A DNA stretch of 64,000 nt from a bacterium (GTDB lineage: Bacteria; JAHJDO01). Within the stretch, counting starts at the first letter, position 1. The number at the start of each line of letters is the position of its first letter. The translations under genes and the position numbers were made by a program. Under the pieces are notes generated by a model that made no database searches, was not told the origin of the DNA, and was given only the letters and a program-made list of their open reading frames with translations. Below are positions 8,188 to 60,756 of this stretch, piece after piece. The DNA lies in the NCBI GenBank assembly GCA_030652805.1, contig JAUSPT010000024.1, positions 37,050-101,049 on the forward strand, in the 5' to 3' direction.

Positions 8188-8273
8188 AGAAAATTGGAGG
8201 CATAACCCATTACAACGCTAACACTCGCAATGACTTGGCAGGATAGGAATAATTAACCTAAGGAGATAGACAT

Positions 8274-9413: not shown

Positions 9414-9416
9414 ATC

Positions 9417-10208: not shown

Positions 10209-10230
10209 TCTTTTATCCTCAAACTAACAT

Positions 10231-10304
10231 GTGCCTGTAGCTCAGTTGGATAGAGCGTTGGGTTGCGGACCCAAAGGTCGGAGGTTCAAATCCTCTCAGG
10301 CATG
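10231..10304 (+). tRNA. tRNA-Arg (anticodon GCG as parsed)
   Basis: Cloverleaf folded by hand: acceptor GTGCCTG/CAGGCAT (G1:U72), D-arm GCTC/GAGC, anticodon stem TTGGG/CCCAA, loop TTGCGGA, T-loop TTCAAAT. Confidence 0.6.
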
Positions 10305-10311
10305 CCGCAAT

Positions 10312-10398
10312 GGAGAGATCGCGTAGCCTGGCTTAGCGCGCACGCTTGGAAAGCGTGTAACCTGAAAGGGTTCGAGGGTTCAAATCCCTCTCTCTCCG
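10312..10398 (+). tRNA. tRNA-Ser (anticodon GGA), long variable arm
   Basis: Acceptor GGAGAGA/TCTCTCC, anticodon stem CACGC/GCGTG loop TTGGAAA, long variable arm, T-loop TTCAAAT, discriminator G. Confidence 0.75.
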
Positions 10399-10418
10399 CC
10401 GGTTTCTTTCAGCTTCTT

Positions 10419-12344
10419 TCATTCACGGTGCCTTTTTCCAAGAAGCATAATATCTCGTAGTCCTTCGATACTTTTAGCATGTAACCAGTCTTTGTCAAAG
10501 TTTGCATCTTGAGTAATTTGTGCAATTGCTGATAAAGCGCGCAGATGAAAATTCCTTTCATCACGTGTGCCAACTAATATGAATACAGCATAAACAGGAG
10601 TTGACGATTCTATAAAGTTAATGCCAGCTTCACATCTTACTATAACCAGTTCGAATTTGTGCTTGCCGTCAATAATTATATGTGGAATTGCCAATCCTGG
10701 CTTTATTACTGTTGTTGAAGTTTTCTCCCGCGCAATTAAAGAATCGAGCACTTGCTTTGCGTCCATGTTTAATCTGCTAGCGAGTTTTTCTGCAATAATT
10801 GCGAAGAATTCTTTAAGTGTAACTTGTTTTGTTATATCAATTACTTTGCATCTTTTTACTAATTCGTCAAATCTGTCTTCTATTATTTTGTCCCGTTCTT
10901 TTAGAACTTCGCGTAGCTCAGCTCCTAATGAATCACCTGCAATCTCTTTGGCAGTTATACGCTCAACAATATGTATTAGAGCGGACTTGCGCATGGATAT
11001 CTTGCGAACATAAATCCTATGCCATAAAATACAGGAAAGGATAAAGCTTCCCGTTCCAAGGATTGCTATAGTTCCCATCTTATATATTAGAAACCCATAA
11101 CAGATGATTCCTGCTATTTGTAACCAGGGATACAATGGCGAGCGGAATGTTGGCTTATAATTCAGAATTTTGCTTTCACGCATAACAATGCATGCTAGGA
11201 ACGCAAATATAAATAATACGAGCTGCATGGTGGAGGCTACTTTTACAAGATTTTCAAGATTTAGAAAAAGCATCACTATTATCATGAAAATTCCTGTAAA
11301 TATTATAGAAAAATGTGGTGTGTTAGATCGTTTGTTTATGTTTGCAAGAAATCCTGGCAGAAGATGATCACGACTCATTGCCATAGGAAAACGTGATGCA
11401 GCCAGTATACCCGCGTTGGCAGTAGTAATAAAAGCAAGTATTGCAGCGATTGCCATAACCAAGCTGCCAATTTTACCAAATATTTTATATCCCCCAGTTG
11501 ATATTGGAGTCAGGGAATGCGCCAGTTCATGCTTGTCGAGCAAGCCCACTGTTACAAAAATTGCTAAACCATAAAGAAGCAGTACAACGCAAAATGCCAG
11601 TATCATTCCGTACGGGATGTTCTTTGTTGGATTCTTTACCTCTTCTGCAACACTTGCAACCTTTGTCAATCCACAAAACGATATAAAGACCATACCGGCT
11701 GCTGCAAACAGCGCGTGCTTGTCAGACAGCATAAAAGGAGTGTATCTGTTGACATCAATAAACATTGTTCCGCGAGATATATATAAAACCAATAAACCGA
11801 TGAGCAGAATTACAAAGAAAACCTGAAACCTTCCTGTGAATTTAACGCTTGTCAGGTTGAGAATTATAAAAAACACACAGAATCCTACAGCAATGAGTTT
11901 AATCTGCCAATCTGTGATATTTGGGTTGATCAATGTTGCAAATACACCAATGCCAACTAATGAGAACGCGCTTTTAAGACTGAGCGAAAACCAACTGGCG
12001 AATCCACCCATTGTGCCTGCCGCTGAGCCCATACTTCGCTCAATAAAGAAGTAATCGCCGCCGGCTTTAGGCATAGCTGTAGTCAATTCAGCCTCAGAAA
12101 ATAACGCTGGTAGAATGAGTATGCCTGCCAGAATATAGACTAGAATCACTGCTGGACCAACTTTAGCATAGATCAGTCCAGGAAGGATAAACAGTCCTGA
12201 ACTAATCATTGCGCCAGCAGCGATGCAAAATACGTCAATACCCCTCAGTTGGCGGATTAATCTTTTGCCTTGATTATTATGAGACATAATCTGTATATTA
12301 TACTGCCAAATCTCATAATTGCGAGAACTTTTAGAAAAACGCAA
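10419..12344 (-). CDS. APC-family amino acid permease fused to C-terminal PTS EIIA(Fru/Ntr-type) regulatory domain
   Basis: 12 predicted TM helices with APC motifs (GAMISSGLF..PG), then C-terminal ~150 aa PTS_EIIA_2-like domain (GLAIPHIIIDG...VFILVGTRDE). Start may be the internal MSHNNQ at 12287. Confidence 0.7.
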   Translation of the reverse strand: MRFSKSSRNYEIWQYNIQIMSHNNQGKRLIRQLRGIDVFCIAAGAMISSGLFILPGLIYAKVGPAVILVYILAGILILPALFSEAELTTAMPKAGGDYFFIERSMGSAAGTMGGFASWFSLSLKSAFSLVGIGVFATLINPNITDWQIKLIAVGFCVFFIILNLTSVKFTGRFQVFFVILLIGLLVLYISRGTMFIDVNRYTPFMLSDKHALFAAAGMVFISFCGLTKVASVAEEVKNPTKNIPYGMILAFCVVLLLYGLAIFVTVGLLDKHELAHSLTPISTGGYKIFGKIGSLVMAIAAILAFITTANAGILAASRFPMAMSRDHLLPGFLANINKRSNTPHFSIIFTGIFMIIVMLFLNLENLVKVASTMQLVLFIFAFLACIVMRESKILNYKPTFRSPLYPWLQIAGIICYGFLIYKMGTIAILGTGSFILSCILWHRIYVRKISMRKSALIHIVERITAKEIAGDSLGAELREVLKERDKIIEDRFDELVKRCKVIDITKQVTLKEFFAIIAEKLASRLNMDAKQVLDSLIAREKTSTTVIKPGLAIPHIIIDGKHKFELVIVRCEAGINFIESSTPVYAVFILVGTRDERNFHLRALSAIAQITQDANFDKDWLHAKSIEGLRDIMLLGKRHRE

Positions 12345-12423
12345 GATATTACAAATTAAGGCAATATAATTTGAGAAATATAGTTATGTTAAAGATACAC
12401 TCTCTCAAAAAGGAGTATTAACT

Positions 12424-14118
12424 ATGATGACAGATTTAGAAATTGCACAAGCCGCAAAACTTAAACCAATTCAGGAGATTGCCAAAAATATTGGGCTAAA
12501 AGATGATGAACTAGAATTGTATGGTAAGTACAAGGCAAAAATTATTCTTGAAGTCCAGGATAGGTTACATACACAATCAAATGGTAAGTATATTGATGTA
12601 ACAGCCATTACTCCTACTCCTCTTGGTGAAGGAAAAACTGTTACAACTATTGGCCTGAGTATGGCACTCAACAGAATAGGCAAAAAGACAATTACTGCAA
12701 TAAGACAGCCTTCAATGGGTCCCACATTTGGAATTAAAGGTGGTGCAGCAGGCGGAGGATATTCACAAGTTGTACCTATGGAGGATTTCAATCTTCATCT
12801 TACAGGGGATATACACGCTGTAGGAGTAGCTCATAACCTTCTTGCAGCATTTATTGACAACTCTCTTCAGAAAAAGAATCCATTAAATATAGATCCATTT
12901 AGTATTACATGGCGCCGTGTTGTTGATATCAGCGATAGAGCTCTGAGAAATATTGTAATAGGCCTGGGCGGCAAGATAGATGGAGTTCCTAGGGAAACCG
13001 GTTTTGATATAACTGTAGCTTCAGAAGTTATGGCAATCCTTGCTTTAACAACAGGCTTAAAAGATTTAAGGAAAAGGTTGGGCAGAATAGTAATTGGTTA
13101 CACGAGAGATGAGGAGCCTGTAACAGCGGAAGATCTTAAATGCGCAGGCGCAATGACTGTTCTGATGAAAGACGCGATAAAGCCAACTTTAATGCAGACA
13201 TTAGAGAATACGCCTGTGTTTGTGCATGCAGGTCCATTTGCAAATATTGCACACGGCAATAGTTCTATACTGGCTGACAAAATAGGATTAAAACTTGCTG
13301 ATTATGTAGTAACAGAGAGTGGATTTGGAGCAGATTGCGGAGCAGAAAAATTTCTTAACATCAAATGCCGTTATAGTAAACTAATTCCCGATGCGGCTGT
13401 AATAGTATGTACTGTTAGGGCACTTAAGATGCACAGCGGTGATTTTACAGTTGTTGCTGGAAAACCGCTTGATGAGGGATTAATCAAAGAAAATCTGGAT
13501 GCTATTGAGCGTGGAGCTTGTAATCTGGAGAAACATATTGAAAATATAAAATTGTTTGGAATTCCTGTAGTAGTTGCTGTGAATAGATTCACTACTGATA
13601 CAGATAAAGAAATAGAATTAATAAGAGAAATAGCTAAAGGGGCTGGCGCGGAAGATGCGGTTGAGAGTACTGTGTGGGCTGAAGGAGGTAAGGGAGGAGA
13701 AGAACTTGCAAAGAAAGTTGTTGAAGTTGCAGAGAAACCCAGTAATTTTAAATTTCTATATGATTTAGAACAATCAATAGAAGAGAAGATGACTATCATT
13801 GCAAAAAAGATTTACGGAGCTGATGGGATAGATATTTCTCCTGTGGTTAGAAAGAAGATCCGTATGTATGAAAAAAATGGGCTTGATAAACTACCTATCT
13901 GTATGGCAAAGACACATCTTTCACTTTCTCATGATCCAAAATTAAAGGGAAGACCAAAAGGTTTCACAGTTCCAATAAAAGACATTAGACTATCTGCAGG
14001 AGCAGGTTTTCTTTACCCTCTACTTGGAGACATGCGAACAATGCCAGGACTTCCGACTACCCCTGCTGGTACAAAGGTAGATATTGACAGTACAGGGAAA
14101 ACTGTTGGATTGTTTTAA
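12424..14118 (+). CDS. fhs: formate--tetrahydrofolate ligase
   Basis: [17 protein letters not shown]-loop and full-length FTHFS conservation. Confidence 0.92.
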
Positions 14119-14626: not shown

Positions 14627-16696
14627 ATGCAAATTGGAGATGTTAAAAAGATAAGAAATATCGGCATTATGGCTCATATTGATGCGGGTAAAACGACAAC
14701 AACAGAAAGAATGCTATTCTTTGCAGGCAGGATACATCGCATAGGCGAAGTTCATGACGGGGCTGCTACAATGGACTGGATGGAACAGGAAAGAGAGAGG
14801 GGAATAACAATCACGTCTGCGGCCACAACATGTATCTGGCGTAAGCATCATATTAATATCATTGACACTCCAGGGCATGTAGATTTCACTGCAGAGGTAG
14901 AACGAAGTCTAAGGGTTTTAGATGGTGCAGTAGCAATATTTTGCGCAGTTGGCGGTGTAGAGCCGCAAACTGAAACTGTATGGAGGCAGTCGGAAAAATA
15001 TAAAATTCCCAAGATTGTCTTTATTAATAAAATGGATAGAATTGGAGCAGATTTTTTTGCTGTACTTGAGATGATAGACAAGAAACTTGGAGTTAACTAT
15101 GTGCCAATTCAGTTGCCTATTGGAAAGGAAGATAATTTTCATGGCATTATAGATATTGTGGAAGAAAAGGCATTTTTCTTCAATCCGGAAGACGCTATGG
15201 AAGAGCCGAAAGAACGAGAAATTCCAGAAGACTATGTAAAGATGACGAAGAAATATAGAAATGAGCTAATAGAAAAACTTGCTGACACAGATGACAGTCT
15301 CATGAATAAATATATTGAAAATCAGCCCATTACAATAGAGGAAATTAAGAATTCTCTTAACAAAGCAACTATAAAATCCGAGATATTCCCTGTGCTGTGC
15401 GGCGCAGCTTTCAAGAACAAGGGAGTCAGGAGGCTTATGGAAGCTGTTGTCGATTACCTGCCAAGTCCAGAAGAGGCCCCCCCTGTAGAAGTTATAGATA
15501 GTGATTCAGGAGAAAAGAGCCTGTTCAGTTTCGGAGAAAAAAAGGATTTATTGGGGCTCGCTTTTAAGATTGCTGTTGACCCTCATATTGGAAAACTTGT
15601 TTATTGCAGAATATATTCGGGTTCAATAAAACAAGGTGAATATGTTTTCAAGGCAGGGTCATCAAAGAAAGAAAGAATATCCCGTATTGTAAAGATGCAC
15701 GCTAATAAAAAAGAAGCTGTGAATAGTCTCAGCGCAGGAGATATAGGAGCAATAATCGGGCCAATGAACATTACTACTGGAGATACAATATGTAAACAAA
15801 ATTCTAATCTTTTTCTCGAGAACATAGAATTTCCAACACCTGTAATTTCAGTGGCAATTGAAGCAAAGAACAAGATTGAGCAAGAGAAACTTTCGGATTC
15901 CATAAGAAAATTATCTAATGAGGACCCGACATTTAATTTCTTTTTTAATGAAGAGACATCCCAAACTATTCTTTCTGGTATGGGTGAACTGCATCTTGAG
16001 ATCCTGGTAGATAGATTAAAGAGGGAGTTTAAAGTGTCTGCGAATGTAGGCAAGCCTAAAGTTGCTTTCAAGGAGACAATAACCAATATTCAGGAAGAAA
16101 AATACAAACATCAGAAGCAAACTGGTGGAAGAGGGCAATTTGCAGAAGTACACATAGAACTAATTCCTGCAAAGAGAGGTGAAGGGTTCGAATTTATTAA
16201 TGATATCAAGCAGGGAGCTATTCCAAGAGAATTTATTCCTGCTGTTGAAAAGGGCTGTATTGAGGCAATGGAAGCAGGAATTTTTGCGGGATATCCTGTA
16301 ATTGATGTAAAAGTAAGATTATTTGACGGAAGATTTCACGAAGTTGACTCTTCTGAAATAGCTTTTAAGGTAGCCGGGTACTATGCATTCAAAAGTGCGT
16401 TTATGAAGGCAGGTCCAAGGCTTGTTGAGCCGATTATGACAGTAGATATATCTACTCCGGAAGAGTATTTTGGTTCAATCATGTCTGATATAACATCAAG
16501 AAGAGGTAAGATAATCCTGATAGAAAAAAAGGCTAAGAGCCAGTTAATAAAGGCTGAGGTTCCGCTTATGGAACTTTTCGGTTACGCTACACAGCTGAGA
16601 TCACTATCACAGGGACGAGCAACAGAGTCTATGCGGTTTGAAAGATATGACAAAGCTCCTCCGCATGTTGTCAGTAAAATAATAGAAGACAATTAA
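14627..16696 (+). CDS. fusA: elongation factor G (likely a second EF-G paralog; not in an rpsL-rpsG operon)
   Basis: [13 protein letters not shown]1 motif, [16 protein letters not shown] domains IV/V ([13 protein letters not shown]). Confidence 0.85.
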
Positions 16697-19757: not shown

Positions 19758-21455
19758 ATGGAAGCAAGAAAAACAGGAATTGATATTTTAGGCAATAAGC
19801 CCTGGGGTACACACTTCTGCCAATTTTACCAGACCAAAAATGATTTAATTGATATTCTGGTGCCGTATTTTAAAGCGGGATTAGAAAATAATGAATTTTG
19901 CATGTGGGTTACTTCAGAGCCTCTAAATGTTGAAGAAACAAAGGAATCGTTAAGAAAGGCTGTAAAAGACCTGGATAAGTATATCAAAAAAGGTCAGATA
20001 GAAATACTTGATTACAGCCAGTGGTATACCAAAGCAGGAAAATTCGAACAGGATAGGGTATTACAGGGCTGGGTCAAAAAGGAGAAGGAAGCCATAAAGA
20101 AAGGGTTTGACGGTCTCCGCCTCACAGGCAATACTTTCTGGCTTGAGAAAAAGGACTGGAAGAGTTTTGCTGATTATGAAGAAGTGGTAAACAATGTTAT
20201 AGGTAAATATAAAATGCTCGCAATCTGCACCTATTCCCTTGAAAAGTGCAATCTATTTAAAGTCCTGGATGTAGTCAAAAACCACCAATTCGCTCTCATA
20301 CAGCGTGCAGGTAAATGGGAGATTATTGAAAGCGCCGAGCTCAGGAAGGCGGAGGAGGAGCTAAGGGAAAACGAAGAGAAGTATCGAGACTTGTGGGAGA
20401 ACGTAAATGACCTTATTCAGAGCGTTAAACCAGATGGTACGTTTGTATATGTTAACCGTGCCTGGCGAGAAACTCTTGGGTATAATGAGAAAGAAATCCC
20501 AGATCTCTCGTTGTTGGATATCATTCATCCCGACAGTCATGCGCACTGTATGGAGATATTTAAGCGTTTGTTAGCTGGAGAAAAGGTCGAATACATTGAA
20601 GCTGCGTTCCTGGCCAAGGATGGCAAGACAATTATGGTCGAGGGAAGCGCAAACTGTCGCTTCGTAGATGGCAAGCCTGTTACTACACGCGCTATTTTCC
20701 GTGATGTCACCGAGCGCAAGAAGGTGGAGAAGAGGAAATCGGAATTTCTTTCTCATGTATCCCACGCCTTAAGGACACCCTTGGCTTCGATTAAATCCTT
20801 TGTAGAGATTCTCTTAAAGTACAAAGATGTGAATCCGACCGAACAAAGTGAGTTTCTGACTGTAATTAATAATGAAACTGACCGTTTAACTCGCCTGATA
20901 AATCAACTTTTAGATTTAGACAAGATAGAACAGGACGAGTTAAAATGGAAATTTGTGTCTTGTGATATCTCGAATATAGTTCAGAACGCAATTAGTGAGC
21001 TAGAGCCATTGATACAAGAAAAAAATATTGTAGTTAATATGAATCTTCCTTCTCAGGATTTGATTGTTAATGGAGATAAAGATAGATTAAATGAGGTGTT
21101 CATAAATCTAATAGGCAATGCAATTAAATTTACTCCTAGTAAGAGAGAGATTAGGATAACCGTTAAAAATAAAGGGAAAGTTGTCGAAGTCAGTATAGCT
21201 GATACAGGTATAGGAATACCCAAGGATGAGTTGACCAATATCTTTGAAAGGTTCAAGAGATTAGATAACTCCATTAATAGAAAGCTAACAGGAACAGGTT
21301 TGGGCTTATACATATGCAAGCAAATTATAGAAAAGCATGAAGGTAAGATTTGGGCTGAGAGCCATGGAAGTAAGGGTGCTAAATTTATTTTTGTCTTACC
21401 AAAGTATAAAGCTAAGTCAACTAAAAAGAGAATCGAACCCAAAAGAGGTTCATAG
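19758..21455 (+). CDS. sensor histidine kinase: MEDS domain - PAS - HisKA - HATPase_c
   Basis: N-terminal WGTHFCQFY (MEDS signature), PAS (VNRAWRETLGY), H-box FLSHVSHALRTPL, G-boxes DTGIGI/GTGLGL. Confidence 0.8.
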   Translation: MEARKTGIDILGNKPWGTHFCQFYQTKNDLIDILVPYFKAGLENNEFCMWVTSEPLNVEETKESLRKAVKDLDKYIKKGQIEILDYSQWYTKAGKFEQDRVLQGWVKKEKEAIKKGFDGLRLTGNTFWLEKKDWKSFADYEEVVNNVIGKYKMLAICTYSLEKCNLFKVLDVVKNHQFALIQRAGKWEIIESAELRKAEEELRENEEKYRDLWENVNDLIQSVKPDGTFVYVNRAWRETLGYNEKEIPDLSLLDIIHPDSHAHCMEIFKRLLAGEKVEYIEAAFLAKDGKTIMVEGSANCRFVDGKPVTTRAIFRDVTERKKVEKRKSEFLSHVSHALRTPLASIKSFVEILLKYKDVNPTEQSEFLTVINNETDRLTRLINQLLDLDKIEQDELKWKFVSCDISNIVQNAISELEPLIQEKNIVVNMNLPSQDLIVNGDKDRLNEVFINLIGNAIKFTPSKREIRITVKNKGKVVEVSIADTGIGIPKDELTNIFERFKRLDNSINRKLTGTGLGLYICKQIIEKHEGKIWAESHGSKGAKFIFVLPKYKAKSTKKRIEPKRGS

Positions 21456-21472
21456 AGTAATAGGAGAGATCT

Positions 21473-22159
21473 ATGGCTAAGAGAACAATCTTAGTAGTTG
21501 ATGATGATCCTAATATCATTCAAGCGGTCTCTTTTGTTTTAAAAAAGGAAGGATATATAGTTACTACAGCTGTTGATGGAAAAGAAGCATTTAAAAAAGC
21601 TAAAGAAGAATTACCTCACCTAATTATTCTTGATGTTATGTTACCGAAACTGAGTGGATTTGAGGTCTGTAAACGATTAAAAGCTAATACTCAAACCAGA
21701 AAAATTCGTACTATTATGTTGACTGCTAGGAGTGAAGAAAAGGATAAAAGGTTGGGTGAGAAGTTAGGTGTGAATGCTTATATTACTAAACCTTATAATA
21801 TTGATGAGGTTCTATTTACAGTAAAGAGAGCTATAGAGAAAAAAGAATTACAGAGATCAATTGAAAAAATGAAAAAAGCAGCCTTGGTGGGGTATATGGG
21901 AGAGGCGATGTCTCATGAGATATTTAATCCTTTATCTGTTGTTTCTGGCTCCGTCCAACTTTTAATGAGCAGGATTAAAAAAGGCAAAAAGCTAACTACA
22001 AAAGAATATGAAGATTTCTTTAAAAATATTACTAAAAATGTAGAAAGGTGCATAGAGATTATAAATATTTTTAGGAAATTTTATGCATCTATAGGCATTG
22101 AGATTAAGCCTAGAAATTTAGAAGAAACGTTAAGGGATATATTGGAAGGCAAGATATGA
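21473..22159 (+). CDS. response regulator receiver with C-terminal HisKA-like dimerisation domain (no ATPase domain)
   Basis: ILVVDDDPN...LIILDVMLPKLSGFEV receiver; C-terminal EAMSHEIFNPLSVVSGSVQLL H-box-like. Confidence 0.7.
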   Translation: MAKRTILVVDDDPNIIQAVSFVLKKEGYIVTTAVDGKEAFKKAKEELPHLIILDVMLPKLSGFEVCKRLKANTQTRKIRTIMLTARSEEKDKRLGEKLGVNAYITKPYNIDEVLFTVKRAIEKKELQRSIEKMKKAALVGYMGEAMSHEIFNPLSVVSGSVQLLMSRIKKGKKLTTKEYEDFFKNITKNVERCIEIINIFRKFYASIGIEIKPRNLEETLRDILEGKI

Positions 22160-23229
22160 TTATGAGTAAAGAGTTTAGCAGAGCTCTGTTTGAGTACAAT
22201 CCTATTGAAACCGTAGTCGTGGATTTGGAAGGAAGAATAATCGACTTTAATCTGGCAAAAAAGAACTCAGGGGATAGATTGCCCAATATTGGGGATGGGA
22301 TGTACAAGGATTATGCAGCTCATCATGAGATTGACATGTATGCTGAATTGATAAAATGTATCAGAACAAGTAAGGTAAAAAAGTTTCCTGAGAAAAAATA
22401 TAAAAAGAGGTTTCTATCCATAACAATAGCTCCCTTTCCCAAAGGGGCAATTATAACATCTCTAGATGTCACCGAGCACAAGAAAGAGACAGAAATAGAG
22501 AGGAAAAGAGCTACAGAGGCGAAAAAGGATTATGAACAACTACAAGCCAATAAGGACGATTTGATTCGCTCCGAGAAACTTGCCTTTACCGGCCGCATAG
22601 CCGCAAATATTGCTCATGAGATAAGAAATCCCCTGACCAATGTAGCTATGGCAGTCCAGCAGCTTGGGAAAACCATTAAACAGGAAGGACACATTGCTAA
22701 ACATATGGACATCATTAAAAGAAACACAGAAAGGATTAACTATTTAATTACTGAACTCCTAAATTGTGCCCGCCCGCCAAAACTTAATATACAGCCATGT
22801 AATATTCATAAGGTATTAGAAGATATTTTAGAGTCCAACAAGACTAAGATTAGTTCAAAAAATATAAAGATAATTAAAAGGTTTACCTCTGACACATTCA
22901 TAATAAAGATTGATAAAGAACAAATGCAGCGTGCCTTCTTAAACATAGTCATCAATGCTATTGAAGCTATGCCCAAGAGAGGCAAATTGACCATTATTAC
23001 AGAGTTTAAGGGAAATCTTTTTGAGGTGAAGGTTCAAGATACAGGTAAAGGCATTCCTGAAGAAGATATTATCAGGATATTTGACCCTTTCTTTAGTTCC
23101 AAGTCCGGGGGTGTAGGCTTAGGATTGACTATATGTTATGGGATTATTGTGAGCCATGGCGGTACTATAGAGGTAGAAAGCAAGCCGAAAGAAGGGTCTA
23201 TCTTTATGGTATCTTTGCCAATTGGGTAA
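22156..23229 (+). CDS. sensor histidine kinase (PAS-like - HisKA - HATPase_c), cytoplasmic
   Basis: H-box IAHEIRNPLTNV, N-box, G-boxes DTGKGI/GVGLGL; start overlaps upstream stop (ATGA). Confidence 0.8.
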   Translation: MIMSKEFSRALFEYNPIETVVVDLEGRIIDFNLAKKNSGDRLPNIGDGMYKDYAAHHEIDMYAELIKCIRTSKVKKFPEKKYKKRFLSITIAPFPKGAIITSLDVTEHKKETEIERKRATEAKKDYEQLQANKDDLIRSEKLAFTGRIAANIAHEIRNPLTNVAMAVQQLGKTIKQEGHIAKHMDIIKRNTERINYLITELLNCARPPKLNIQPCNIHKVLEDILESNKTKISSKNIKIIKRFTSDTFIIKIDKEQMQRAFLNIVINAIEAMPKRGKLTIITEFKGNLFEVKVQDTGKGIPEEDIIRIFDPFFSSKSGGVGLGLTICYGIIVSHGGTIEVESKPKEGSIFMVSLPIG

Positions 23230-23326
23230 AGATCAAAAGTTAGAAAAAGTAAAATTTTGAGATAAAAAAGGCACAAAGTGACAAAGGCGCAAAAGATGCT
23301 CGTTTACATAACGGAGAGTGAATATA

Positions 23327-23407
23327 AACTCACCCTGACCCTCTCTTGAGTAGAGAGGGAATGTTCCCCTTCTCTGTCAAGAGAAGGGGCGAGGGGATGA
23401 GTTGAGT
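23327..23407. repeat. composite inverted pair of a short dispersed repeat (second copy at 60721-60753)
   Basis: AAACTCACCCTGACCCTCTCTTGAGTAGAGAGGG ... CCCCTTCTCTGTCAAGAGAAGGGGCGAGGGGATGAGTTGAGTT. Each half is a hairpin (CCCTCTC..GAGAGGG) plus GGGTGAGTT tail, matching 60721-60753 in both orientations. Confidence 0.55.
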
Positions 23408-23439
23408 TCACTAAATATTTACGACGACGGAGTGTAATA

Positions 23440-24048
23440 GTGGAAATAAAATATGATATTAGAAGAGGCGCAGATATATATCGGGCAATTTATGGAGCTC
23501 GATTACAGAAATGGATTCTTGCAGGTAAGATAAAGCGAGGAGAAGTAATTGTCTGGCGAAGCGGTCTTTCAGGCTGGCGCAAAGCCGAAGAACTTGAAGA
23601 ACTGGCGCCATTTTTTGAACAGTGGGAAAAAGAACAATTAAGAGAAACAAAGAGGCAAAAAGAGCAAGTCTTCTTAAGGAAGAAACAGAAGAAGATAAAG
23701 AATATTTTGATAATAGACGATGAGAAGGATTTGTGTTCGCTCCTGTCTGACGCCTTAATCCAGAGAAACTACAATGTATCGATTGCAAACACAAAAAGAG
23801 AAGCTATGGCTTATCTTAAAAAGAAATCACCTGATTTAGTTCTGTTAGACCTAAAACTACCTGATGGCGATGGAATAAAAATCCTTCCTAGGATCAAAAG
23901 GGTAAATCCAGAGACAGTAGTGATTGTAATTTCTGCCTATGGAAGCGAAGAAAGCAGACAAATGGCAAAAAAGGGAGGAGCTTTTACCTTTATAAACAAG
24001 CCGTTTACTGAAGAAGATATATTAAGGAGTATAAAAGTACTCTCATAA
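23440..24048 (+). CDS. response regulator: N-terminal DUF4339/GYF-like domain, K/E-rich linker, receiver domain
   Basis: GWRKAEELEELAPFF (DUF4339-like), then ILIIDDEKD...LLDLKLPDGDG receiver. Confidence 0.65.
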   Translation: MEIKYDIRRGADIYRAIYGARLQKWILAGKIKRGEVIVWRSGLSGWRKAEELEELAPFFEQWEKEQLRETKRQKEQVFLRKKQKKIKNILIIDDEKDLCSLLSDALIQRNYNVSIANTKREAMAYLKKKSPDLVLLDLKLPDGDGIKILPRIKRVNPETVVIVISAYGSEESRQMAKKGGAFTFINKPFTEEDILRSIKVLS

Positions 24049-24059
24049 CAGAGGGCAGC

Positions 24060-25439
24060 ATGGAGACGATTCTAATAGTAGATGATGAGAAGGACTTGCG
24101 TTTTAATCTTTCCAACATTTTGAAGGACGAAGGTTACAACGCAATCGCTGTGGGAGACGGAAGGAAAGCGCTTAATGCAGTTAAGAAAAATTCTCCCAAT
24201 TTGGTCCTGCTGGATATGAAGCTTCCTGAAATGGATGGGATGCAGATTCTAGAGAAGATGAAGCTGATTGATAAGGATTTGATTATTATAATGCTTACTG
24301 CTTATGGAAATCTAAATGGAGCGGTAAAAGCAATGAAATTAGGGGCATTTGACTATCTTGCCAAGCCTTTTGATAATGAAGAATTAATTCTTGTAATAAA
24401 AAGGGCTCTTCGGACCCAATATTTAGCCAAGGAAGTAGAAACTCTAAAAAAACGGGTTGGTGAAAAAATTACAGCAGAAGAGCTAATGGGAGAAAGCCCT
24501 CAAATAAAGCAAGTCTTAAAACAGATTAAGATAATTGCTCCGACCAATATGACTGTAATACTTCAAGGTGAAAGCGGAACAGGCAAGGAATTGATTGCTC
24601 AGATGATCCATCAGGAAAGTCCGCGAAAAAATGACCCTTTTATTGCTATAGACTGTGGCGCAATTCCCGATACATTGGCTGAGAGTGAACTCTTTGGTCA
24701 TGAGAAAGGCGCCTTTACAGGAGCTGATGCTCAAAAAGAAGGCAGGTTTGAAGAGGCTAATGGAGGAACTCTGTTTCTGGATGAGATTACAAATCTCTCT
24801 TCTACTACGCAGAGAAAACTTCTCAGAGTGATACAGGAAAGAAGGCTTCAGCATATAGGCGGCAAGAGAAGTATAAAAGTTGACGTCAGAATAATCGTGG
24901 CTACGAACATTAATCTCTCAGGCGCGGTAAGGCGGGGTAAATTTAGAGAGGACCTCTTCCATAGGTTAAATGAATTTCATATTTCACTTCCCCCGCTTCG
25001 GGAAAGAAAAGATGACATCCCCCATTTAGCCATGCGTTTTTTGGGGGGAGGAAATCAGGAATTAAATAAAAAAATAGAAGGGTTTTCTTCTGATGTAATG
25101 AAATTGCTTCTGGATTATCCCTGGCCGGGCAATGTTAGAGAATTAAAGAATGTAGTCAGAAAAGCAGTGCTTCTGTGCGATTCCAATCATATCAAACCGG
25201 AACACTTTCCATTAGATAATATTGCTTCCACTAAAAAGCTTGAATTTCAGCAGGATTTGGATAAAGGAGTCTCCCTCAAAGAGATAACTAAAAAAGCGAC
25301 AGGACAGATAGAAAAGGAAGCTATTGAGCAAGCACTGGCAAAAGCCGGCGGCAATAAAAGTAAAACCGCCAAAATCCTCAAAATAGACCGCATGACCCTC
25401 TATTCTAAGATGAAGGAATATCAGATACGTAGACTGTAA
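24060..25439 (+). CDS. sigma54-dependent transcriptional activator, NtrC family (receiver - AAA+ - Fis-type HTH). Candidate gas-vesicle regulator, GvrA-like
   Basis: Receiver LLDMKLPEMDG; Walker A GESGTGKE; GAFTGA motif; ESELFGHEKGAFTGA; C-terminal HTH KTAKILKIDRMTLYSKMK; immediately upstream of a sigma54 promoter and gvpA. Confidence 0.9.
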   Translation: METILIVDDEKDLRFNLSNILKDEGYNAIAVGDGRKALNAVKKNSPNLVLLDMKLPEMDGMQILEKMKLIDKDLIIIMLTAYGNLNGAVKAMKLGAFDYLAKPFDNEELILVIKRALRTQYLAKEVETLKKRVGEKITAEELMGESPQIKQVLKQIKIIAPTNMTVILQGESGTGKELIAQMIHQESPRKNDPFIAIDCGAIPDTLAESELFGHEKGAFTGADAQKEGRFEEANGGTLFLDEITNLSSTTQRKLLRVIQERRLQHIGGKRSIKVDVRIIVATNINLSGAVRRGKFREDLFHRLNEFHISLPPLRERKDDIPHLAMRFLGGGNQELNKKIEGFSSDVMKLLLDYPWPGNVRELKNVVRKAVLLCDSNHIKPEHFPLDNIASTKKLEFQQDLDKGVSLKEITKKATGQIEKEAIEQALAKAGGNKSKTAKILKIDRMTLYSKMKEYQIRRL

Positions 25440-25511: not shown

Positions 25512-25529
25512 TGTAGAATAGAGTCTACA
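25512..25529. promoter_or_regulatory. palindromic upstream activator sequence candidate (TGTAGA-N6-TCTACA)
   Basis: Perfect 6-bp inverted repeat about 190 bp upstream of the -24 element; shares the half-site with the 25567 palindrome. Confidence 0.5.
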
Positions 25530-25566
25530 CTATATAAAGGAACACGTAGGGTTGTTGTAAAATAAA

Positions 25567-25584
25567 TTCTACACAGATGTAGAA
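25567..25584. promoter_or_regulatory. palindromic upstream activator sequence candidate (TTCTACA-CAGA-TGTAGAA)
   Basis: Perfect 7-bp inverted repeat about 120-135 bp upstream of the sigma54 -24/-12 element; typical bEBP enhancer distance. Confidence 0.55.
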
Positions 25585-25701
25585 ACAACTCTACGCTTTT
25601 TGCCTTTAAATTTCCTCTGCTTTTAAGCTCCTCAGAATTCTTTCAAAAGATATTTTTAAAAAAGAGGATACGCAAGCCGAAATTTTTTTTAGCAGATACT
25701 T

Positions 25702-25717
25702 TGGCACGGAATTTGCT
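25702..25717 (+). promoter_or_regulatory. sigma54 (RpoN) -24/-12 promoter of gvpA
   Basis: TGGCACGgaatTTGCt. Exact match to TGGCACG-N4-TTGCW with correct GG/GC spacing; about 113 bp upstream of gvpA ATG; NtrC-type activator encoded immediately upstream. Confidence 0.8.
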
Positions 25718-25830
25718 TTTACAATACAGATGGTCGCAGATGAAAAATCGCAGATGGGTACAGATGTTCAATCTGCGCTGGTCTGTGAAAATAATCTGCG
25801 CTAATCTGTGAAAGAGGGGAGGTGGAAAAA

Positions 25831-26037
25831 ATGGCAGTAGAAAAAGCAATCGGTTCATCTAGTTTGGTTGAGGTTATTGACAGAATCCTTGACAAGGGTG
25901 TTGTGGTTGATGCATGGGTTAGAATTTCTTTAGTTGGTATTGAATTACTCGCTATTGAAGCAAGAGTCGTAGTCGCATCAGTCGAGACATACCTGAAGTA
26001 TGCTGAAGCAATTGGTCTAACCGCAACAGCAGCTTAA
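25831..26037 (+). CDS. gvpA: gas vesicle structural protein GvpA
   Basis: [60 protein letters not shown]. Near-identical to the canonical GvpA core; AGGTGG RBS before ATG 25831 (ORF track starts at upstream GTG). Confidence 0.95.
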
Positions 26038-26226
26038 GTATAGTTTAAAAAAAGGATTCTTGCCGAGCCACCCTTTTGAGCGCAGATTGGCGCAGATGTA
26101 AAAGACAGATGCACACAGAGAAATCTGTGATAATCAGCGTAAAAAAATCAGTGTTAATCTGTGGTTTAAACAGCATGGTTCGCCAAGAGATTCCTTTTTC
26201 CGTTCTGAGAAAAAAGGGGTAAAATT

Positions 26227-26925
26227 ATGGGAAGTGCCGAGGAAATGAAGAATTTGGCGCAAGGAATTGTTTCTTCTTATCAGGCCAGAGTTTCTGAAGT
26301 AGCCACGGTCATGGACAATGCTCACCAAATTCTTGAAGATTTTAAGCTCAAAAGAAGTGAGATGAGCAGTCAACTTAGAGAAACCCTTGCCAATGGAGAG
26401 TCTCTCAGAAAAAAGGATTTTGATAATATGATGAAAGGCATCCTTTCCCATCAAGAAGAAAGAGAAAAAGAGGTAAAAGATTTATTAAAGACTTTTTTTG
26501 AAGAACAAAAAGAAATAGCTGAAGCCATTAGGAAGAATTTGGCCGAAGGCGAAAGCGTGAGAATAAGTGATTTTAAAAAGATGCTCCAGGATATTCAGGC
26601 AAGGCAGAAACTCAGGGAAAATGAAGTAAGAACGACCCTAAAGGAATTTCAGGAAGGACATAGGGAGATGGCTGAGTCTTTGCACAGCCTTTTAAATAAA
26701 GAAGAGTCCTTACGGATTGAGGACTTTAAAGAGATGCTAAAAGATATTCGTTCAAGACAGATAGAGCGGAAAAAAGAAGTCAGAACCAAACTTGATGAAT
26801 TCAGGAAAGAACATCAAAATATGACTTCCGAATGGAATAAACTAACCGGTCTTATGGCCGAGAAAAGAGCCAGCAAGCTGAGAGGAGGTGAGAGAGAGGA
26901 AAAGTTGGAAGTTGCCAGGGTTTAA
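26227..26925 (+). CDS. tandem-repeat coiled-coil protein, candidate GvpC-like gas vesicle scaffold/strengthening protein
   Basis: Three ~50-aa repeats of pattern L..GES.R..DFK.ML.DI..RQ..RE.EVR..L.EF...H..M; hydrophilic, predicted all-helical; directly downstream of gvpA as gvpC is in cyanobacteria. Confidence 0.5.
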   Translation: MGSAEEMKNLAQGIVSSYQARVSEVATVMDNAHQILEDFKLKRSEMSSQLRETLANGESLRKKDFDNMMKGILSHQEEREKEVKDLLKTFFEEQKEIAEAIRKNLAEGESVRISDFKKMLQDIQARQKLRENEVRTTLKEFQEGHREMAESLHSLLNKEESLRIEDFKEMLKDIRSRQIERKKEVRTKLDEFRKEHQNMTSEWNKLTGLMAEKRASKLRGGEREEKLEVARV

Positions 26926-28043: not shown

Positions 28044-28364
28044 ATGAGCGAGATAAAATGTGCTTTCTGCAAAGGCACGGGCAAGGATCCATTTGATCTT
28101 CTATCCGAGCTTGCTGTCTGCCAGGTTTGCGGAGGCAGGGGTAAAGTTGAGGTAAAAGAGCCGGCAATCAAGTGTGTCTTTTGTAGCAGCACCGGTATCT
28201 ATCCTCGTAGTCGAGTTACCTGCACTGTATGTAATGGCAAAGGAATGGTTGCGGTTAAAGGCGCGACTGACGAGTGCCCTAAGTGCAAAGGCACAGGCAG
28301 AGCAATAGATAGCGGACTTCCCTGCATTAAATGTGGAGGCAAAGGGGTCGTTTCAAAAAAATGA
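28044..28364 (+). CDS. DnaJ-type cysteine-rich zinc-finger (CxxCxGxG repeat) protein
   Basis: Six CxxC(x)GxG motifs (CAFCKGTG, CQVCGGRG, CVFCSSTG, CTVCNGKG, CPKCKGTG, CIKCGGKG), as in DnaJ CR domain. Confidence 0.7.
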   Translation: MSEIKCAFCKGTGKDPFDLLSELAVCQVCGGRGKVEVKEPAIKCVFCSSTGIYPRSRVTCTVCNGKGMVAVKGATDECPKCKGTGRAIDSGLPCIKCGGKGVVSKK

Positions 28365-30127: not shown

Positions 30128-30148
30128 CAACTGCATAGGTGGTTGAGA

Positions 30149-30541
30149 ATGAATTGGAACACATTTGACTTTAAAAGCGGGAAAAGCGGAAGAACCAGGT
30201 CAGGACGAAGGATAGGTGAGATTTTGGAAGGGGATAAGTTTAGATGTTCATTATGCAGAGGCACAGGGATATTACCCCGAACCAAGGGCACAAGATGTCA
30301 TGTATGTAAAGGCTCAGGCATAGTTTCCTTAACCGGACCGGCAGTAGTATGCGCTTACTGCAAAGGCAGAGGCGATTATCCGCCGAGGACAAGTCTTACC
30401 TGTACGGTTTGCGGAGGGAAGGGTTTAGTTAGCATTACCAAACCCATTGAAATATGCGAACATTGCCGGGGAACCGGTGCTGAGCCGGGCAATAAACTAC
30501 CTTGCTTAAAATGCAAAGGTAAGGGTGTGATTACAAAATAG
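30149..30541 (+). CDS. DnaJ-type cysteine-rich zinc-finger protein (paralog 2)
   Basis: CSLCRGTG, CHVCKGSG, CAYCKGRG, CTVCGGKG, CEHCRGTG, CLKCKGKG; AGGTGG RBS, ATG at 30149. Confidence 0.7.
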   Translation: MNWNTFDFKSGKSGRTRSGRRIGEILEGDKFRCSLCRGTGILPRTKGTRCHVCKGSGIVSLTGPAVVCAYCKGRGDYPPRTSLTCTVCGGKGLVSITKPIEICEHCRGTGAEPGNKLPCLKCKGKGVITK

Positions 30542-31666: not shown

Positions 31667-32053
31667 ATGAGCTGGCAAACAATGGAGTGGAATAAACAAA
31701 AGATCGGGCGCAGAGGAGAGATTTTAACCAGGGATGTCTACAGATGCGGTTTTTGTAGAGGCACAGGTCTCCTTTCTTCTAAAAAGGGGATAAAATGTCC
31801 TGTTTGTTTAGGTAATGGAGAGGCAAAGGTTTCATCTCCGGCTGTAATTTGCGCTTATTGCAATGGAACGGGAAAAAGACATCCTCGAACTACCCTCACC
31901 TGTACTGTTTGCCGAGGAAAGGGTGTTGTGAGCGTGGGAACTTCTGATATTGAAGCTTGTCCTACTTGCAAAGGAATAGGCAGGGAACGCGGCAGGACTC
32001 TTCCCTGTTTAACCTGCAAAGGGACAGGCGTTATTCCTAAAAAGAAGAGATAA
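31667..32053 (+). CDS. DnaJ-type cysteine-rich zinc-finger protein (paralog 3)
   Basis: CGFCRGTG, CPVCLGNG, CAYCNGTG, CTVCRGKG, CPTCKGIG, CLTCKGTG. Confidence 0.7.
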   Translation: MSWQTMEWNKQKIGRRGEILTRDVYRCGFCRGTGLLSSKKGIKCPVCLGNGEAKVSSPAVICAYCNGTGKRHPRTTLTCTVCRGKGVVSVGTSDIEACPTCKGIGRERGRTLPCLTCKGTGVIPKKKR

Positions 32054-32085
32054 TATTTTAGTATTAAATGTACAGGGAGAAAAAA

Positions 32086-32604
32086 ATGGCTAAAGAAAAG
32101 AAAAAAAATGAAGAAGCGGTAGGTTTTGATTTTGGCATTGGTGGGCTGTTTAAAGGTATTGAGAAATTAGTTGACCTGGCAGCAGATTTAAAAGAGGCCG
32201 GAGGGGAGATTAAGAAAGAAGGCGAAATAGACCTGAGCCATCTTAAGAAAGGGATGAAGGGAGTATTTGGATTTTCTGTAAAAAGCGCGGTGGGAGGAAA
32301 ACCAACAGTTGAGACATTCGGCCACAAAATTAAGAAGACCCCTGAAGGTCCCACGGTTGAAGAAGAGAGAGAGCCTATCATAGATGTATTTGATGAAAAA
32401 GAAGAGATCCGAGTCTATGCTGAGATGCCGGGGGTAAATGACGAGTCTATATCGGTTGATTTAAAAGGGGATATATTAGAAATAACAGCTGTAAGTAAGG
32501 ATAGAAAATACCGCAAGGAAATTTTGCTTCCTGCTAAAGTTGAATCTAAAACTTTAGAGAGGAGTTTTAAAAACGGTATCTTAGAAATAAAAATAAAGAA
32601 ATGA
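32086..32604 (+). CDS. gvpH: Hsp20/alpha-crystallin-domain protein, GvpH-like
   Basis: C-terminal ACD: IDVFDEKEEIRVYAEMPGVNDESISVDLKGDILEITAV...ERSFKNGILEIKIKK; RBS AGGGAG before ATG 32086 (ORF track starts at 32068). Confidence 0.75.
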   Translation: MAKEKKKNEEAVGFDFGIGGLFKGIEKLVDLAADLKEAGGEIKKEGEIDLSHLKKGMKGVFGFSVKSAVGGKPTVETFGHKIKKTPEGPTVEEEREPIIDVFDEKEEIRVYAEMPGVNDESISVDLKGDILEITAVSKDRKYRKEILLPAKVESKTLERSFKNGILEIKIKK

Positions 32605-32607
32605 TAT

Positions 32608-33543
32608 ATGGCATTAACAGGATTAAGAGAAGATGCGTTAAAACTGGTTTTATTTGGAGGGAAGGGCGGCGTAGGAAAGACAACCTGTGCATCAAGCACA
32701 GGCTTTTATTTAGCAAAGAATTTCAGGACATTGCTTTTTTCAACAGACCCGGCACATTCGCTCTCTGATAGTTTAGAGCAGGACATTGGCAGTAACATAA
32801 TAGAGGTGAAAGGGACAAAAAACTTGAGTGCTTTTGAAGTAAGCGCAGAAAAAGCTCTTTCTAGATTCAAGATAGAACATGAAGACCAGATAAAAAAGAT
32901 TTTGGATACCTCTACCTATTTAGATGAGGAAGACATTGATTCCATCTTTGATTTGCCTATTCCCGGGATGGATGAAGTGATGGGGTTCAAGACAATTGTT
33001 GATTTAATAGAGGAAGCTAAGTTTGACAAGTACATTGTAGATACCGCGCCTAGCGGTCATGCGATGAGACTTCTGACTTTACCTGACCTGCTGGATGACT
33101 GGGTCAAGGTTATGGCAAAGATGAGATGGAAGTATAGATATATGGTGGAAAGATTTGGCGGAAGATATAATCCTGACGAAGGCGATGATTTCTTATTAAC
33201 TATGAAAAAGACCGTAAAGAGAATAGAAAATCTTCTTAAGGATCAAAAAAGGTGTGAATTTATAGCAGTTACCATTCCGGAAGATATGGCAATTTTAGAA
33301 ACCGGGAGAATGATAAATAATTTGAACGACTATGGCATAAAAGTGAGGCAATTAGTAATAAATAATGTTGTAGAATCGCAGGATTGCGGATTTTGTAGAG
33401 AAAGAAGAAAAGGGCAGGAGAAACATATAAACAGGATAATGAAAAAGTTTGATGACTTAAAAATAACAATTGTCCCTTTGCAATCAAGGGAGGTTAAAGG
33501 TATAGATACCTTGAATAATTTTAAAGAGATGCTATTTCAATAA
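32608..33543 (+). CDS. ArsA/Get3-family P-loop ATPase (single ATPase domain)
   Basis: Deviant Walker [11 protein letters not shown]; ArsA/Get3 signature [12 protein letters not shown] (cf. DTAPTGHTLRLL); [11 protein letters not shown]. Confidence 0.75.
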
Positions 33544-60720: not shown

Positions 60721-60753
60721 CCCTCTCTGTCAAGAGAGGGTCAGGGTGAGTTT
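60721..60753. repeat. second copy of dispersed hairpin repeat (see 23327-23407)
   Basis: CCCTCTCTGTCAAGAGAGGGTCAGGGTGAGTTT immediately before the ATG at 60757. Confidence 0.5.
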
Positions 60754-60756
60754 AAT

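Follow-up and report, generated by a model that had tools for sequence, protein, structure and literature searches.

A probable two-layer regulatory head of a gas vesicle gene cluster, with a chimeric receiver-histidine protein that lacks an ATPase domain

The DNA stretch analyzed here (hereafter, the window: 64,000 nucleotides (nt) of contig JAUSPT010000024.1, assembly GCA_030652805.1, GTDB lineage JAHJDO01) carries a gas vesicle (gvp) gene cluster preceded by five signaling genes, denoted g1 to g5 (Table 1). We propose that these genes form a two-layer regulatory head of the gvp cluster, in which a conserved core (g3-g4-g5) receives an additional input (g1-g2) that was rewired by the formation of a chimeric gene, and we put the probability of this explanation at about 0.6. 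In the core layer, the PAS kinase g3 would phosphorylate the NtrC/AtoC-type receivers of g4 and g5; phosphorylated g5 would then bind three TGTAGA-N6-TCTACA sites and open a sigma54 promoter, resulting in the transcription of gvpA and the genes that follow it. In the input layer, the MEDS-PAS kinase g1 would act on the PhoB-like receiver (REC) of g2, a protein in which the receiver is fused to the dimerization and histidine phosphotransfer (DHp) domain of a HisKA kinase, without the catalytic and ATP-binding (CA) domain. Phosphorylation of D54 of g2 would be passed via a continuous alpha5/signaling helix to the DHp bundle (H148, E149 and N152), which would change the phosphorylation level of g4 and/or g5, possibly as a receiver-gated phosphatase or, alternatively, as a phosphodonor that the ATPase domain of g3, which is translationally coupled to g2, would charge in trans.

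The original prediction, made from the sequence alone, described five signaling genes upstream of gvp that would form a tightly coupled multistep phosphorelay ending at a sigma54 activator. The five open reading frames (ORFs) were confirmed at 19758-25439, co-oriented on the + strand, with gvpA beginning at 25832, and a multicomponent, multi-input system with the sigma54 activator as its end point is supported; a unique, conserved sigma54 promoter lies in front of gvpA. Tight coupling holds for g1-g2 (17 nt apart), g2-g3 (a 4-nt ATGA overlap) and g4-g5 (11 nt), but not for g3-g4, which are separated by 210 nt with a palindromic insert. A single linear phosphorelay through all five genes is not established, given the division into a conserved core and an accessory module, the separate family-type pairing of kinases and receivers, the allosteric action of the receiver in the related kinase LvrB, and a divergent homolog of g2 with a degenerate receiver.

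Chimeric origin of g2

The g2 gene is a natural fusion of two neighboring genes that arose by a 360-nt in-frame deletion. In related metagenomic loci and contigs (denoted L followed by a number; related proteins are denoted P), the gene order is HK1 (histidine kinase 1, the counterpart of g1), a stand-alone receiver REC_A of 121-126 amino acids (aa), a REC_B-HisKA protein of 226 aa, and the g3 ortholog, with the ATGA overlap between the last two genes present in L006-L008. The stand-alone receiver is absent from the window, and codons 1-105 of g2 show 93% DNA identity to the stand-alone receiver of L002, compared to about 52% to REC_B. This part covers strands beta1 to beta5, including D10, D11, D54, T84 and Y103. 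Codons 106-228 come from the REC_B-DHp gene and contribute K106, alpha5, the signaling helix, the DHp hairpin with H148, E149 and N152, and a CA stub consisting of the first strand and helix.

The junction falls in codons 103-110 (Y-I-T-K-P-Y-N-I), with the crossover at the conserved Lys-Pro after strand beta5. BLAST segments between the window and L005 overlap at 21774-21802 and are offset by exactly 360 nt, and a codon-by-codon comparison places the switch of parent between codons 105 and 106. The flanks show 96-97% identity. The fusion is the derived state because all other members of the family are unfused: the form of about 226 aa was found in three lineages (L002, L005 and L006-8), in 20 protein clusters and in P0242.

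The possibility that the chimera is an assembly artifact caused by k-mer collapse was considered and appears unlikely. The longest exact stretch common to both parental genes at the junction is about 7 nt, as read from the codon table, and an independent Logan assembly yields an identical 228-aa protein.

The two parental receivers are of different types. The REC_A part of g2 has PhoB as its best NCBIfam match, and REC_A resembles PhoB, YycF and RR468, whereas the ancestral REC_B receiver resembles those of AtoC, NtrC and NtrX. The deletion would have replaced an AtoC-like gating receiver with the likely PhoB-like partner of g1, wiring the MEDS kinase directly to the DHp domain. The families to which the proteins belong pair accordingly by type: g1 is PhoR/WalK-like, matching the PhoB-like g2 receiver, and g3 is AtoS/ZraS-like, matching the NtrC/AtoC-like g4 and g5.

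The ATPase-less REC-DHp family

Pfam searches of g2 detected Response_reg (2.7e-26) and HisKA (1.7e-08) domains and no HATPase_c match. In the AlphaFold model (pLDDT 86.6), alpha5 of the receiver runs continuously (residues 110-169) into DHp helix 1 and is followed by DHp helix 2 (176-206) and a short final helix; no ATPase domain is modeled and there is no room for one. The predicted receiver-HisKA protein without an ATPase is thus borne out by both the domain search and the model. The protein ends 22 residues past DHp helix 2, about 12 residues into the CA domain, and its last 20 residues can be aligned with the strand and helix that open the CA domains of g3 and P0045. All of the receiver residues D10, D11, D54 (21632-21634), T84, Y103 and K106 are retained, as are H148 (21914-21916), E149 (H+1) and N152 (H+4) of the DHp domain, in an H-box of the sequence SHEIFNPL. 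Across the g2 family, D54, H148 and the entire H-box are invariant.

Homologs of g2 are few, comprising about 20 clusters of 225-231 aa, all with the REC-HisKA architecture and no ATPase. The ratio of nonsynonymous to synonymous substitution rates (dN/dS) lies at 0.1-0.3 in the DHp half as well as in the two receivers, so the REC-DHp family is under purifying selection. An exhaustive HMMER search with the DHp half against 1.84 billion representatives recovered two specific clusters at 50% identity, the family itself and P0242, the remaining matches being generic HisKA domains at E>1e-9. P0242 (L109 491-1168, 225 aa) is 44% identical in the DHp half and ends at the same C-terminal position as g2. 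It has an intact H-box (AHEIFNPM) but a receiver without acidic pocket, acceptor Asp or switch Thr, and represents a second, divergent ATPase-less REC-DHp lineage with a degenerate pseudo-receiver. A genome scan with the DHp half returned one species representative, on the same contig as L005, along with unrelated full kinases, mostly large fused double kinases of spirochetes. Judging from these comparisons, the ATPase-less REC-DHp family is real, functional and extremely narrow. We also considered whether g2 could be a decaying pseudogene; this was rejected given the dN/dS values and the same C-terminal end being kept down to 44% identity.

The likely source of the architecture is a kinase controlled by its own receiver. 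P0045 is a full REC-HisKA-HATPase protein, 37% identical to g2, and SHEIFNPL is also the H-box of the REC-DHp-CA module in the spirochete fused double kinases. Because of these proteins and the C-terminal CA stub, g2 looks like a truncated derivative of a Rec-controlled histidine kinase of the LvrB type, rather than a member of that group. A PDB sequence search matched the receiver to Spo0F at E of about 1e-15; of the 60 PDB matches listed, none extends over the DHp half, and neither Spo0B nor ChpT appears in that list. Receiver matches also dominated a Foldseek search with the g2 model, in which only LvrB (8vc9) was informative.

Possible mode of action of g2

In HisKA kinases, the Glu at H+1 serves the kinase activity and the Asn or Thr at H+4 serves the phosphatase activity (PMC3510030). 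Since g2 keeps the His, the Glu at H+1 and the Asn at H+4, it may be a receiver-gated phosphatase. We further suggest, tentatively, that the ATPase-less REC-DHp proteins make up a distinct, very narrow class of receiver-gated proteins acting in trans on NtrC-type receivers, either as phosphatases or as phosphodonors, and that the allele described here would be a receiver swap at the Lys-Pro site that rewired the input to buoyancy.

We do not favor a literal His-Asp-His-Asp relay through g2, although it is possible. In such a four-step chain, phosphate would pass from g1 to D54 of g2, from there to H148 of g2 and finally to the g5 (or g4) receiver, with g3 as a second entry point, and g2 would be an analog of Spo0F and Spo0B in one chain. 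The invariance of D54, H148 and the whole H-box fits this scheme, and so does the absence of an ATPase, which leaves H148 not chargeable by g2 itself; the DHp domain is of the NtrB/AtoS type, matching NtrC-type receivers, and phosphotransferases of the DHp type exist, namely Spo0B and ChpT. However, the single continuous helix of 60 residues (110-169) in the AlphaFold model would put D54 far from H148 of the same chain, and the receiver of LvrB works allosterically, with no phosphodonation to its own His (PMC13269768). In addition, P0242 keeps the H-box and the truncated end despite its degenerate receiver, and the extra stand-alone receiver of the ancestral locus does not fit a simple four-step chain.

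The kinase g3 and rearrangements at the locus

The g3 protein matches HisKA and HATPase_c above the cutoffs, has the H-box AHEIRNPL and recognizable ATP-binding motifs, and finds AtoS and ZraS as its best NCBIfam matches. Residues 1-110 are PAS-like and align with the last PAS domain of longer, multi-PAS orthologs (L006, L007 and L002). Relative to the ortholog in L006, g3 lacks about 290 N-terminal residues, that is, two PAS domains, owing to an in-frame deletion that spared the first five codons (MIMSK; window 22156-22185 compared to L006 4266-5150), and the ortholog in L007 lacks one PAS domain. In-frame deletions of whole domains thus recur at this locus. In L002-L005, the g3 ortholog is split by a cassette consisting of a Sigma54_DBD-only ORF (253 aa) and a GIY-YIG ORF (87 aa), located at 10684-12001 in L002, with equivalents in L003, L004 and L005. 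Elsewhere in relatives, ORFs of the 23S_rRNA_IVP and PDDEXK_3 families are wedged in (L002 13904-14275 and 15722-16123; L027 8648-9037). The small genes wedged between the regulatory genes of the relatives look selfish.

We asked whether g2 and g3 could be a single frameshifted gene. This was rejected, as g3 has a complete DHp domain of its own, and is also contradicted by the MIMSK N-terminus and the ATGA overlap being kept in L006 and L007.

A different relationship between the two proteins, in which g2 is a regulatory subunit of g3, seems improbable to us. The two would form a DHp heterodimer, as in RetS-GacS, amounting to a split Rec-controlled kinase whose single ATPase is gated by the g2 receiver. 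The ATGA translational coupling suggests co-production, the DHp regions of g2 and g3 align over 116 residues (E=1e-08), and the g3 ortholog in L027 is a single-chain REC-DHp-CA protein. Against this, the identity in the DHp alignment is only 32%; g3 has its own PAS-like sensor and complete DHp domain and can homodimerize; and in L002-L005, where the two genes are separated, g3 is disrupted and g2 is intact. In L027, the single-chain protein is located after a PAS kinase, an arrangement that shows independently that the core kinase can come under the control of an upstream kinase.

The conserved g3-g4(-g5) core

The g4 protein contains a Response_reg domain preceded by a region for which the GYF_2 model (PF14237, which we take to be the former DUF4339) scores 21.9 bits, below the cutoff of 25.8, over model positions 17-50 only. 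The receiver half of the predicted DUF4339-receiver protein is confirmed, and the N-terminal half remains below threshold in g4 itself, although 19 of 20 g4 family members match GYF_2 at E<0.01 (best E-value 5.5e-06). The AlphaFold model of the N-terminal domain has a beta-alpha-beta-beta order with pLDDT 56-83. With the GYF_2 match beginning at model position 17, a start codon further upstream was considered and rejected, given that all homologs start with M-(A)-E-I-K-Y; L002 has ATG at the position of the g4 start.

The g4 family includes more than 1000 proteins of about 200 aa that are linked to gvp clusters and are 60-70% identical across sources named as Omnitrophica, Verrucomicrobia, Planctomycetota and Thermodesulfovibrionia, with an exceptionally conserved N-terminal stretch of 60 residues. 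A tblastn search of plasmids with g4 gave no match. The g5 protein has the complete domain set of an NtrC-type sigma54 activator, as predicted: Response_reg (3.5e-31), Sigma54_activat (6.9e-71), AAA_lid_14 and HTH_8 (1.8e-15), with the GAFTGA loop and the Walker A motif GESGTGKE. Its best NCBIfam matches are AtoC and NtrC, and the receivers of both g4 and g5 are AtoC/NtrC/NtrX-like.

Conservation of the core was assessed in 80 metagenomic loci. In 51 of 54 loci, g4 is preceded, at a distance of no more than 300 nt, by the end of a g3-like kinase core (at least 50% identity); in 22 of 47, it is directly followed by an NtrC gene; and gvp genes are present in 24 of the 29 loci that span at least 8 kb. 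The recurring layouts are kinase-g4-NtrC-(receiver)-gvpA and gvpF...gvpF-kinase-g4. In L025 and L026, which are Verrucomicrobia metagenome-assembled genomes, the region 6894-12684 encodes the kinase-g4 pair, a single receiver, a REC-PAS-HisKA_3 kinase and a NarL/GerE-type regulator, followed by gvpA; here, the same pair seems to feed a different output regulator, with no NtrC activator. From this distribution, g3-g4(-g5) emerges as the regulatory unit that these gvp clusters from many uncultured lineages have in common, and g1-g2 as a lineage-restricted accessory input module.

Output at the gvpA promoter

The window has a single exact TGGCAC-N5-TTGC element, the sigma54 promoter, about 115 nt before the start of gvpA. 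In 12 of the 13 more distant loci that have both an NtrC gene and gvpA, an exact sigma54 element is likewise found between the two. Three palindromes centered about 110-190 nt upstream of the -24 element are the only matches to TGTAGA-N6-TCTACA in the window with no more than one mismatch. In L002, both the promoter and the palindromes have been preserved within otherwise divergent sequence. Palindromes of a similar kind lie 150-200 nt upstream of the sigma54 element in at least 7 of the 13 loci, and L023 also has one upstream of its promoter. The palindromes are candidate enhancer sites (upstream activating sequences) for g5. Thus, a sigma54 promoter with upstream sites, the arrangement expected at the target of an NtrC-family protein, is found by sequence in front of gvpA.

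A long hairpin in the predicted 5' leader of gvpA (Table 1) consists of CGCAGAT/ATCTGCG repeats, part of which is missing from L002. Another long hairpin (z=-5.3) occupies the spacer after gvpA (26036-26230). The hairpins flanking gvpA, the gene whose product is needed in the largest amount, may be structures that stabilize or attenuate the mRNA.

The MEDS kinase g1 and its changing sensor

The MEDS domain predicted for g1 is confirmed: PF14417 matches over the entire model (positions 1-161 of 161) with E=5.4e-47 and 160 bits, far above the gathering cutoff of 29.8. It is followed by PAS, HisKA and HATPase_c domains, the last two above their cutoffs; the best NCBIfam matches, PnpS, WalK and PhoR, are all below cutoff. 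No genes of hydrocarbon or C1 metabolism adjoin g1, and the ligand class attached to MEDS (hydrocarbon, methyl compound or redox) is a family annotation and putative for g1.

The sensor part of HK1 (window 19758-20335, compared to L002 7422-8497) differs among genomes: the window and L005 have MEDS-PAS, L002 and L003 have PAS-PAS, and L006 has multi-PAS-GAF. The kinase core is at least 94% identical at the DNA level despite the swapped sensor. In the more distant L049, a MEDS kinase (MEDS 67% identical) and a receiver again precede g3-g4-g5-gvpA. The H-box of g1 (20763-20786) reads SH336ALRTPL, with Ala at H+1 in place of the Glu or Asp typical of HisKA, and this Ala is kept in all six sequences compared, g1 and five orthologs (L002, L005 and L006-L008). 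The ATP-binding motifs look intact. The residue at H+1 is needed for autokinase activity in CrdS and HK853 (PMC3510030).

Weighing the two-layer explanation

Several observations weigh against the two-layer explanation. The Ala at H+1 may make g1 a weak kinase or mainly a phosphatase, and its presence in g1 and all its orthologs is a point that the favored mechanism leaves unexplained. The pairing of kinases with receivers draws on adjacency and family-level similarity, which do not establish specificity. The DHp domains of g2 and g3, as read from the sequence, differ after the His at H+8 (V/N), H+11 (G/M) and H+15 (L/Q), which are specificity positions; from the DHp sequences, then, neither a shared target nor a heterodimer of the two proteins is evident. 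Most gvp loci with g3-g4-g5 have no module resembling g1-g2. The structured 210-nt spacer between g3 and g4 could split two transcription units in this genome. Finally, the chimera is known from one population, and its two assemblies may share reads.

The last three of these points also speak for an alternative in which the genes are independent neighbors, with only the core regulating gas vesicles and g1-g2 acting elsewhere, or in which the fused g2 is a loss-of-function allele or an assembly artifact. The extreme narrowness of the DHp family is in line with this alternative, as is the character of the locus as a rearrangement hotspot, with the sensor swap in HK1, the PAS deletions in HK2 (g3) and the insertions of mobile genes in relatives. 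We nevertheless consider it unlikely. The g2 protein has no output domain except the NtrB/AtoS-type DHp; the deletion is in frame and kept every catalytic residue; the parental identity of about 7 nt at the junction is too short for k-mer collapse; and the family evolves under purifying selection. Moreover, g2 and g3 are translationally coupled both here and in L006-L008, and L027 and L049 independently tie an upstream kinase and a receiver to the same core. Because of this conserved overlap and the arrangements in L027 and L049, we regard g1-g2 as linked to the core, in agreement with the two-layer explanation.

Comparison with known systems

In Serratia sp. ATCC 39006, the NtrC-family protein GvrA acts on the sigma54 gvpA1 promoter, and GvrB and GvrC are also required (PMC4982088, PMC11778176). 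The locus described here is similar in having an NtrC-family activator inside the gvp cluster, a sigma54 -24/-12 element before the first gvpA and two further regulators. The metagenomic gvpF-gvpF-kinase-g4 layout also corresponds to the Serratia order gvpF2-gvpF3-gvrB-gvrC, a likeness of layout. In contrast to Serratia, the regulators here precede gvpA in one direction, and neither an upstream MEDS kinase nor an ATPase-less REC-DHp protein is described for Serratia in PMC4982088 and PMC11778176.

The closest structural parallel to g2 is LvrB of the Leptospira LvrA-LvrB-LvrC system, in which LvrA phosphorylates the receiver, the signaling helices zip and the CA domain is released (PMC13269768; PDB 8vc9). 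An upstream kinase followed by a protein with an N-terminal receiver, a long signaling helix and a HisKA DHp domain is common to both, and 8vc9 was among the Foldseek matches; unlike LvrB, g2 has no ATP-binding CA domain and cannot autophosphorylate.

With Spo0F-Spo0B of Bacillus and ChpT of Caulobacter, g2 shares the combination of a receiver and a helical-hairpin His carrier without intrinsic kinase activity. In Spo0B and ChpT, a degenerate alpha/beta domain resembling CA is retained and no receiver is fused, whereas g2 has a canonical HisKA H-box, a fused receiver and, according to the model, no alpha/beta domain after the hairpin. Another parallel is the isolated DHp domain of EnvZ ('domain A'), a laboratory construct that has phosphatase activity and can be phosphorylated in trans by a separate CA domain. 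The DHp domain of g2, likewise without CA, keeps the H, the E at H+1 and the N at H+4, but g2 is a natural, conserved gene that includes a receiver, for which we propose a gating role. Among MEDS sensors, DcmR and the EtnR1/EtnR2 epoxyethane system have been reported (Anantharaman and Aravind 2005, as cited in PMC11507031). The g1 protein resembles these in its full-length MEDS domain, here followed by PAS and a kinase core, and differs in that the close relative L002 has PAS-PAS in place of the MEDS part.

Control of gvpA by sigma54 and NtrC-type proteins, networks of multiple kinases and Rec-controlled kinases are thus already known in kind. The new elements are the narrow ATPase-less REC-DHp family, the chimeric allele with its unfused ancestors, and the breadth of the gvp-linked pair of a kinase and a receiver with a GYF-like domain. 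The known case of sigma54/NtrC control of gas vesicles comes from a single enterobacterium, and this pair, often joined by an NtrC activator, suggests a common regulatory head across uncultured lineages. The fused chimera and its unfused relatives, at 93-97% DNA identity, form a natural before-and-after pair for the rewiring of two-component systems, which can address how receiver identity sets the input, whether the core of a foreign receiver is able to drive alpha5 and the signaling helix, and what role a DHp domain plays without an ATPase. If the interpretation is correct, the receiver swap makes pathway rewiring by recombination within a receiver directly testable, the relatives keeping the ancestral state.

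Other features of the region

The features discussed above are listed in Table 1. No equivalog-level NCBIfam name was obtained for any of g1-g5. A terminator scan found no intrinsic terminator on the + strand between g1 and gvpA, and an Rfam scan of the window identified four tRNAs only, none in the signaling region. L006 and L002 lack the palindromic insert, and their g3-g4 spacers measure 18 and 74 nt, respectively; folding of 23225-23445 in the window gives -64.3 kcal/mol (z=-5.0). A 25-nt identical arm of this palindrome recurs between genes at 60730-60754 on the - strand, in a partial second copy, and the insert looks like a small repetitive extragenic element.

Table 1. Features of the signaling region and the start of the gvp cluster, in window positions
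Feature	Position	Strand	Description	Basis
g1 (HK1)	19758..21455	+	565 aa, soluble MEDS-PAS-HisKA-HATPase_c histidine kinase	Pfam, NCBIfam
g2	21473..22159	+	228 aa, chimeric REC-DHp protein without ATPase domain	Pfam, AlphaFold, alignments, dN/dS
g2, REC_A part	21473..21787	+	derived from ancestral stand-alone PhoB-like receiver	95% DNA identity to L005 8076-8390
g2, junction	21779..21802	+	recombination junction, 360-nt in-frame deletion	BLAST segments, codon table
g2, REC_B-DHp part	21788..22159	+	derived from ancestral REC_B-DHp gene	93-96% DNA identity to L005 and L002 REC-HisKA genes
g3 (HK2)	22156..23229	+	357 aa, PAS-like-HisKA-HATPase_c kinase	Pfam, NCBIfam, ortholog alignment
Palindromic element	23316..23410	+	GC-rich, about 95 nt, inserted in g3-g4 spacer	RNA fold
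g4	23440..24048	+	202 aa, GTG start, GYF_2-like N-terminal domain and receiver	Pfam, homologs, AlphaFold
g5	24060..25439	+	NtrC/AtoC-type sigma54 enhancer-binding response regulator	Pfam, sequence, NCBIfam
Three 18-bp palindromes	25512-25529, 25556-25573, 25578-25595	+	TGTAGA-N6-TCTACA	pattern search
sigma54 -24/-12 promoter	25702..25717	+	TGGCACGGAATTTGCT	exact TGGCAC-N5-TTGC
Long hairpin	25725..25810	+	predicted gvpA 5' leader	RNA fold -41.4 kcal/mol, z=-6.1
gvpA	25832..26037	+	major gas vesicle structural protein, first gene of gvp cluster	Pfam Gas_vesicle 2.2e-16, ribosome-binding site

The gvp cluster extends for roughly 17 kb from gvpA, reaching about 42.8 kb. It is unusually rich in genes for chaperone-like proteins (28044-28364, 30143-30541, 31667-32053, 32068-32604, 32608-33543, 33543-35711, 35863-36867 and 40039-40605), which include three small proteins with DnaJ-type CXXCXGXG zinc fingers, a GvpF/L-J domain fusion, a CDC48-like double AAA+ ATPase, an ArsA-type ATPase and two Hsp20/GvpH-like proteins. 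At 41728-42834, the cluster encodes a 368-aa protein with an N-terminal Gas_vesicle domain of the GvpA/J type, followed by weak PH/GRAM/Vps36-like matches. Outside relatives at 92-100%, presumably from its own genus, the EF-G encoded at 14627-16696 has best matches of about 58% identity, spread over several phyla, and the organism represents a deep, poorly sampled lineage.

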